Assembly: GCA_964016885.1 (NCBI GenBank)
Contig: OZ024749.1
Coordinates: 56,668,001 to 56,732,000, forward strand
DNA: 64,000 bases
Direction: 5' to 3'
DNA from: Eledone cirrhosa
Taxonomy: Eukaryota
Shown: in pieces, positions 15,928 through 16,067 of the stretch
How positions within the stretch are numbered: position 1 is the stretch's first letter
Layout: the number at the start of each line of letters is the position of its first letter
Notes under the pieces: model-generated
The model's input: only the letters and a program-made list of their open reading frames with translations
Database searches by the model: none
What the model was told of the DNA's origin: nothing
Made by a program: the position numbers and the translations under genes

Positions 15928-16067
15928 TAGTGTTAGAACAGTAGTAGGTTATATCTGTAGTACGTAGAGCGCTCAGTCCATAGGACGAGTTTGGTATAAA
16001 GTAAGTTCCACAACAGGTAGCAAACCATTTTCGAGGACCAGTGTTTCACCTTGCGGATTTTCAACTC
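15928..16067 (-). mobile_element. HH4 short element (HHR plus tail) between (TA)n and (TG)n
   Basis: Homologous to 59241-59380 and fragment 21601-21636. Confidence 0.7.
16033..16067 (-). ncRNA. Minimal type I hammerhead ribozyme, U3-A8 core
   Basis: gag-TTGAAAA-t-cc-GCAA-gg-t-GAAA-c-actg-g-TC-ctc: 3-bp stem I, GNRA-capped stem II, GUC triplet. Confidence 0.6.

Follow-up and report, generated by a model that had tools for sequence, protein, structure and literature searches.

Two hammerhead ribozyme motifs in the genome of Eledone cirrhosa are most probably decayed copies of predicted dimer-forming hammerheads from sister lineages of Penelope-like elements (PLEs), one fixed for a U3-A8 and the other for a C3-G8 core pair; the swap was probably maintained by selection confined to the source elements. 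Both lie in a 64,000-nt stretch of this 3.0-Gb genome (contig OZ024749.1, positions 56,668,001 to 56,732,000), hereafter the window. There is good support for the 3-8 swap as a compensatory change at the level of lineages, and selection, if any, acted on the source elements and not on the two copies, here called copy A (16033-16067) and copy B (59342-59374).

As read from the sequence, both copies are minimal type I hammerheads on the minus strand, a strand assignment that was absent from the initial annotation of the window, although the two sequence strings it quoted are exact. Copy A, of lineage A, has the core UUGAAAA (U3 at 16064, A8 at 16059), a stem II reduced to a U·U mismatch plus 2 bp (16057-16048), GAAA (16047-16044), stem III ACACUGGU (16044-16037), and a GUC site with C17 at 16036. 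Its stem I is cut to 3 bp (16065-16067 with 16035-16033), and its stem III palindrome is broken (ACACUGGU versus ACACGUGU in the lineage A family). Copy B, of lineage B, has the core CUGAAGA (C3 at 59374, G8 at 59369), the same stem II plan, a GUU site with U17 at 59345, and an intact stem III palindrome (ACAAUUGU), while its stem I is broken by two private changes. Across the core heptamer and GAAA, the copies differ only at positions 3 and 8, as had been annotated; H17 also differs (C versus U, both allowed). Both display the core (C/U)UGAN(G/A)A, GAAA, UH, and three closing stems with stem I open, and in both lineages the G10.1-C11.1 pair that would open stem II is replaced by U·U. Rfam searches of narrow stretches holding copy A or an intact lineage-B copy returned no hammerhead match up to E=10, and for the whole window no hammerhead appeared among the 150 of 372 matches listed, which reflected microsatellite-driven miRNA noise. 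Since copy A is 5′-truncated, alone, and without its palindrome, and copy B carries the two private stem I changes, both are likely inactive now.

Each focal hammerhead lies at the 5′ terminus of a terminal repeat (pLTR) ~140 nt long, and the PLE to which this repeat belongs fits the Hydra clade. The two pLTRs are 76.8% identical over 137 aligned nt, and both end in (TA)n, the insertion target seen for lineages A and B alike. The copy-A pLTR (15930-16067, minus strand) is a 5′-truncated solo repeat of the older lineage A, identified from its sequence and genome copies; it sits between (TG)n (16072-16159) and (TA)n (15881-15929), and lineage A copies elsewhere in the genome are 80–87% identical to it. 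The copy-B pLTR (59243-59381, minus strand), followed by (TA)n, belongs to the young lineage B, whose best 40 genome matches are ~97% identical. Upstream of it on the same strand, part of the 3′ untranslated region of the element survives (59382-59530, outer end approximate); ~150 nt are common to other lineage-B copies at 89–97% identity, and several lineage-B loci share >1.5 kb of upstream sequence. One locus (L062) holds a full-length lineage-B element of <3 kb (4243-6957) bounded by pLTRs at 4243-4380 and 6820-6957, with an open stretch of 722 codons (4337-6502) containing reverse transcriptase and C-terminal GIY-YIG motifs. Pfam and PDB searches of this ORF gave no recognition, and it was therefore assigned by motifs: translations from L062 to L064 display DKT, a CxCX5C linker, no CCHH, and CxxC and CxH flanking E and N, and the L062 ORF has RWR at the place matching the Hydra-clade RWK. 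Lineage A copies lie behind endonuclease remnants ~40–67% identical to the lineage-B protein. On these motifs, the carrier matches the Hydra clade among C-terminal EN+ PLEs, and assignment to the Naiad clade was discarded because the endonuclease is C-terminal and lacks CCHH. Two further frames recognised by eye lie beside lineage-B elements, namely a mariner/Tc1-like transposase frame (L062:1931-3016, minus strand) and a second Penelope-type reverse transcriptase frame (L054:1839-3068, plus strand).

To place the swap among these copies, we aligned 93 near-full pLTRs drawn from 195 distinct matches, with two duplicates removed, and built an IQ-TREE phylogeny from 69 rows after thinning near-identical lineage-B rows and leaving out the hammerhead columns. 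This tree displayed a single change of the 3-8 state (support 99/93), compared to ~17 changes with shuffled labels, and the sequence downstream of the hammerhead was sufficient to separate C3G8 from U3A8 copies. The same split received 100/100 support in a 567-column tree of endonuclease end, untranslated region, and pLTR, in which the state labels of three rows without an aligned hammerhead (L140, L141, L143) are meaningless. Because only one state change is found, copies A and B record one event and do not provide independent evidence, and both trees, built without an outgroup, show the switch without its direction. The stem III palindrome was itself kept between the lineages through its own double change (ACAAUUGU versus ACACGUGU). 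At least five lineage-A copies (L024, L128, L131, L142, L146) carry G8, an altered stem I flank, and one additional base close to position 3; these count against the preferred reading and possibly represent a variant-core or intermediate sublineage, and they formed no clade in the 567-column tree, itself poorly resolved. Overall, the majority base differs between lineages in 27 of ~134 pLTR columns, about a fifth, which makes positions 3 and 8 two of many lineage markers. Such divergence, together with both changes being transitions (C to T, G to A), would allow the pair to have arisen by chance in one diverged lineage, yet we regard this as extremely unlikely: the same double change recurs between a second family, HH6, and its sisters, U3-A8 is found in at least four families, and a mismatched majority occurs in none of the multi-locus clusters.

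Part of this evidence came from a descriptor leaving positions 3 and 8 free, applied to 600 kb of arbitrary genome and to the window. It returned nine matches in the former (5 U-A, 4 C-G) and four in the latter (all U-A), all 13 of them Watson–Crick at 3-8, compared to none in reversed sequence and none in five shuffles; copies A and B were missed because their stems are damaged. Over all loci analysed (1.31 Mb, for the most part selected for these families), the descriptor gave 245 matches versus 3 in reversed sequence. When these were clustered, 16 of 19 multi-member clusters had a Watson–Crick majority, two were 1:1 ties, and the one mismatched cluster consisted of three copies from one locus, while 14 of the 21 single matches were C-G or U-A. 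As annotated initially, HH5 (UUGAAAA) and HH6 (UUGAUAA) do use the U3-A8 variant. HH5, a separate family, is found on the plus strand within an inverted insertion (43205-43255, U3 at 43215), with a second copy at 23130-23180 (plus strand, U3 at 23140), and HH6 lies in a repeat of a young family (52686-52856, plus strand, U3 at 52699; best copies 97–99% identical) with an inverted twin at 52495-52665 (minus strand, U3 at 52652). U3A8 is present in 42 of 42 aligned HH6 copies and 44 of 45 HH5 copies, both sets having been picked by likeness to a U3A8 query, and G10.1-C11.1 is present in HH6 and in many copies of HH5. C3G8 occurs in four sister copies of HH6 from three loci (74–79% identity); from the sequence comparison, this is a second, independent switch, and these two cases, A/B and HH6 with its sisters, are the only switches that could be aligned. 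HH6 has a suggestive link to a 30–46% identical ORF (L181/L213, L166/L214, L171), not firmer because no closing 3′ pLTR was found, and a search of L182 to L211 gave no match to a same-family ORF for HH5.

Several other features of the window concern hammerhead motifs. Upstream of HH6 stem I, seven bases are complementary to N7-A8-A9 and the first part of stem II (52689-52709, plus strand), and the alternative hairpin they could form would mask the core. A near-perfect hairpin at 43137-43214, which scored against miRNA models, was rejected as a miRNA and corresponds to the junction of the inverted HH5-family insertion. Hammerhead-like motifs of other families occur on the minus strand at 18912 (C3G8), 31366 (C3G8), and 59759 (U3G8).

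The pattern among individual copies does not parallel that among families. The initial annotation had anticipated covariation across copies, for which a genome-wide table of positions 3 and 8 was the relevant test, and this expectation was contradicted within the C3-G8 lineage. With B-type flanks fixed, lineage B yielded 4319 C3G8, 106 U3G8, 83 C3A8, and 2 U3A8 copies (counts slightly inflated by inverted twins), i.e., Watson–Crick C-G in 4319 of 4510, and the two U3A8 copies compare to 2.04 expected under independence (odds ratio 0.98, p=1.0). N7 varies among these copies while G8 holds. Independence of the two positions indicates that inserted copies decay neutrally. For lineage A, a hand count in which A-type flanks were required while positions 3, 7, and 8 could vary gave U3A8 in 37 of 46 matches, the remainder being U3U8 (3), C3G8 (2), A3A8 (2), U3C8 (1), and G3A8 (1), with neither U3G8 nor C3A8 among the 46. 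Reversed-sequence controls of the genome pattern searches returned no match. Selection for catalysis on individual genomic copies would predict covariation of positions 3 and 8 among those copies, and one observation does point that way: just two of the 46 copies have C3, and these same two alone have G8. This reading is nevertheless very unlikely, given the exact independence in lineage B and the stem damage of both focal copies; the two C3G8 cases can also be explained as minor sublineages, and may be a small hint of such further C3G8 sublineages. One of the two has an A3A8 copy as its inverted twin (L119/L120). At this twin locus (L119:1500-1570), where both arms have A-type flanks, one arm reads C3G8 and its partner A3A8. 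Taken together, the proposal that the swap reflects selection for catalysis stands in part: the 3-8 pair is Watson–Crick at the family level, as judged from the clusters (16/19), descriptor matches (13/13), and trees, but not copy by copy, with copies A and B both stem-damaged.

We next considered how selection on source elements might operate. In a precursor RNA that is tandem or carries two pLTRs, two hammerheads are predicted to dimerize by pairing of their 8-nt palindromic stem III strands, with an exchange of stem I strands. By analogy with published biochemistry, the 3-8 pair would form in the active fold, and cleavage of the RNA following position 17 would release the 5′ end of the template RNA of the element, thereby processing precursor RNA in the source elements. 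Elements losing the 3-8 pair would be expected to spread poorly, which would explain why families carry either C-G or U-A, and 5′-truncated copies, once inserted, would mutate neutrally. Fold predictions are consistent with dimerization for two intact lineage-A copies (L096 and L106), whose dimers fold as a hammerhead at minimum energy with a gain of -11.3 kcal/mol and with stems I and III predicted to be intermolecular. No clean hammerhead dimer was predicted for two intact or near-intact lineage-B copies, nor for the window HH5 and HH6; lineage-B, HH5, and HH6 examples gave competing folds. The predicted stem III palindrome duplex reaches -10.3 and -6.4 kcal/mol in the two families, and -3.8 kcal/mol (versus -10.3) for focal copy A.

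Hammerhead activity is expected to require A13. Among the matches listed for a sister family of HH5 (L276 to L300; 10,482 genome matches), which has GCAA for GAAA, the first 100 are all U3A8, and 97 of these 100 have C13 for A13; no same-family ORF was established for it. A family with C13 and this many matches indicates that spread is possible with an altered core. Alternatively, the motif could be a pLTR RNA structure, a protein-binding signal, or a vestige, its 3-8 pairing inherited from older ribozymes and its cleavage unneeded for spread. Beyond the C13 family, the weak stem II (U·U plus 2 bp) would fit such a scenario, as would the poor in vitro cleavage of published minimal hammerheads (excerpts of PMC4209133) and the spread of Naiads without canonical hammerheads (excerpts of PMC8557442). 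We consider it improbable, however, as the double change fell on a known tertiary pair twice (A/B, and HH6 with its sisters) and the other core positions are the same in A and B despite the 27 differing columns. A bolder reading, which we consider unlikely, is that U3-A8 makes up about half of the Penelope hammerheads here and that lineages crossed between C-G and U-A repeatedly (at least twice, possibly also back from U-A to C-G) by way of viable intermediates, the G8-plus-insertion group of lineage A being one example, so that the 3-8 pair would tune the cleavage rate, while one U3-A8 branch (C13, >10,000 matches) would have given up or rewired catalysis. If true, these branches would form a natural series in which the dependence of Penelope elements on their ribozyme could be tested.

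The variant itself has clear precedents. Natural C3-G8 to U3-A8 covariation was reported by Perreault et al. 2011 and is cited as active in vitro, and the same paper describes a 2-bp stem II, a U10.1-U11.1 mismatch, and a weak stem III as natural variants (excerpts of PMC3088659), all four of which recur here; unlike here, the variants in these excerpts come without a tie to Penelope elements or a lineage structure within one genome. Excerpts of Cervera and de la Pena 2014 (PMC4209133) report U3-A8 in Penelope pLTRs, with ~1,300 matches missed by the standard descriptor, and also contain the dimer model and the weak in vitro activity of minimal hammerheads. As in the Cercyon PLEs of Schistosoma mansoni described there, the lineages studied here have a type I minimal hammerhead in the pLTR, a short stem I, a palindromic stem III, the U3-A8 variant, and mostly single truncated copies, and the dimer model applies to both. 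However, stem II here has 2 bp behind a U·U mismatch, compared to 7–8 bp with G10.1-C11.1 in Cercyon, the carrier fits the Hydra clade, and the C-G and U-A forms belong to sister lineages that can be aligned. According to excerpts of Craig et al. 2021 (PMC8557442), the Hydra clade is characterized by elements of <3 kb with a single ORF, DKT, CxCX5C, no CCHH, (TA)n targets, and hammerheads. These traits are shared here, as are CxxC and CxH around E and N; the differences are RWR for RWK and a placement made by motifs. A literature search for kinetic data on mutants with a 3-8 mismatch gave no relevant result, and excerpts of a 2026 retrozyme preprint and of PMC6155905 added nothing further on the hammerhead core.

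The U3-A8 variant and the caveat on CUGANGA searches were thus already in print (2011 and 2014; excerpts of PMC3088659 and PMC4209133), and the swap is ordinary. The value of the present case is modest: it provides a clean genome-wide example in which the covariation of a mobile ribozyme distinguishes source lineages from one another but is absent among dead copies. The initial warning that strict CUGANGA searches would miss these copies proved justified, as such searches undercount hammerheads here by losing the U3-A8 forms, five of the nine matches in arbitrary DNA. The matched sister lineages could also serve directly as natural constructs for studying the role of Penelope hammerheads. Elsewhere in the window, a repeat search was dominated by microsatellites, and a tandem array of 29 copies of a 49-bp unit at 96% identity occupies 38251-39682.
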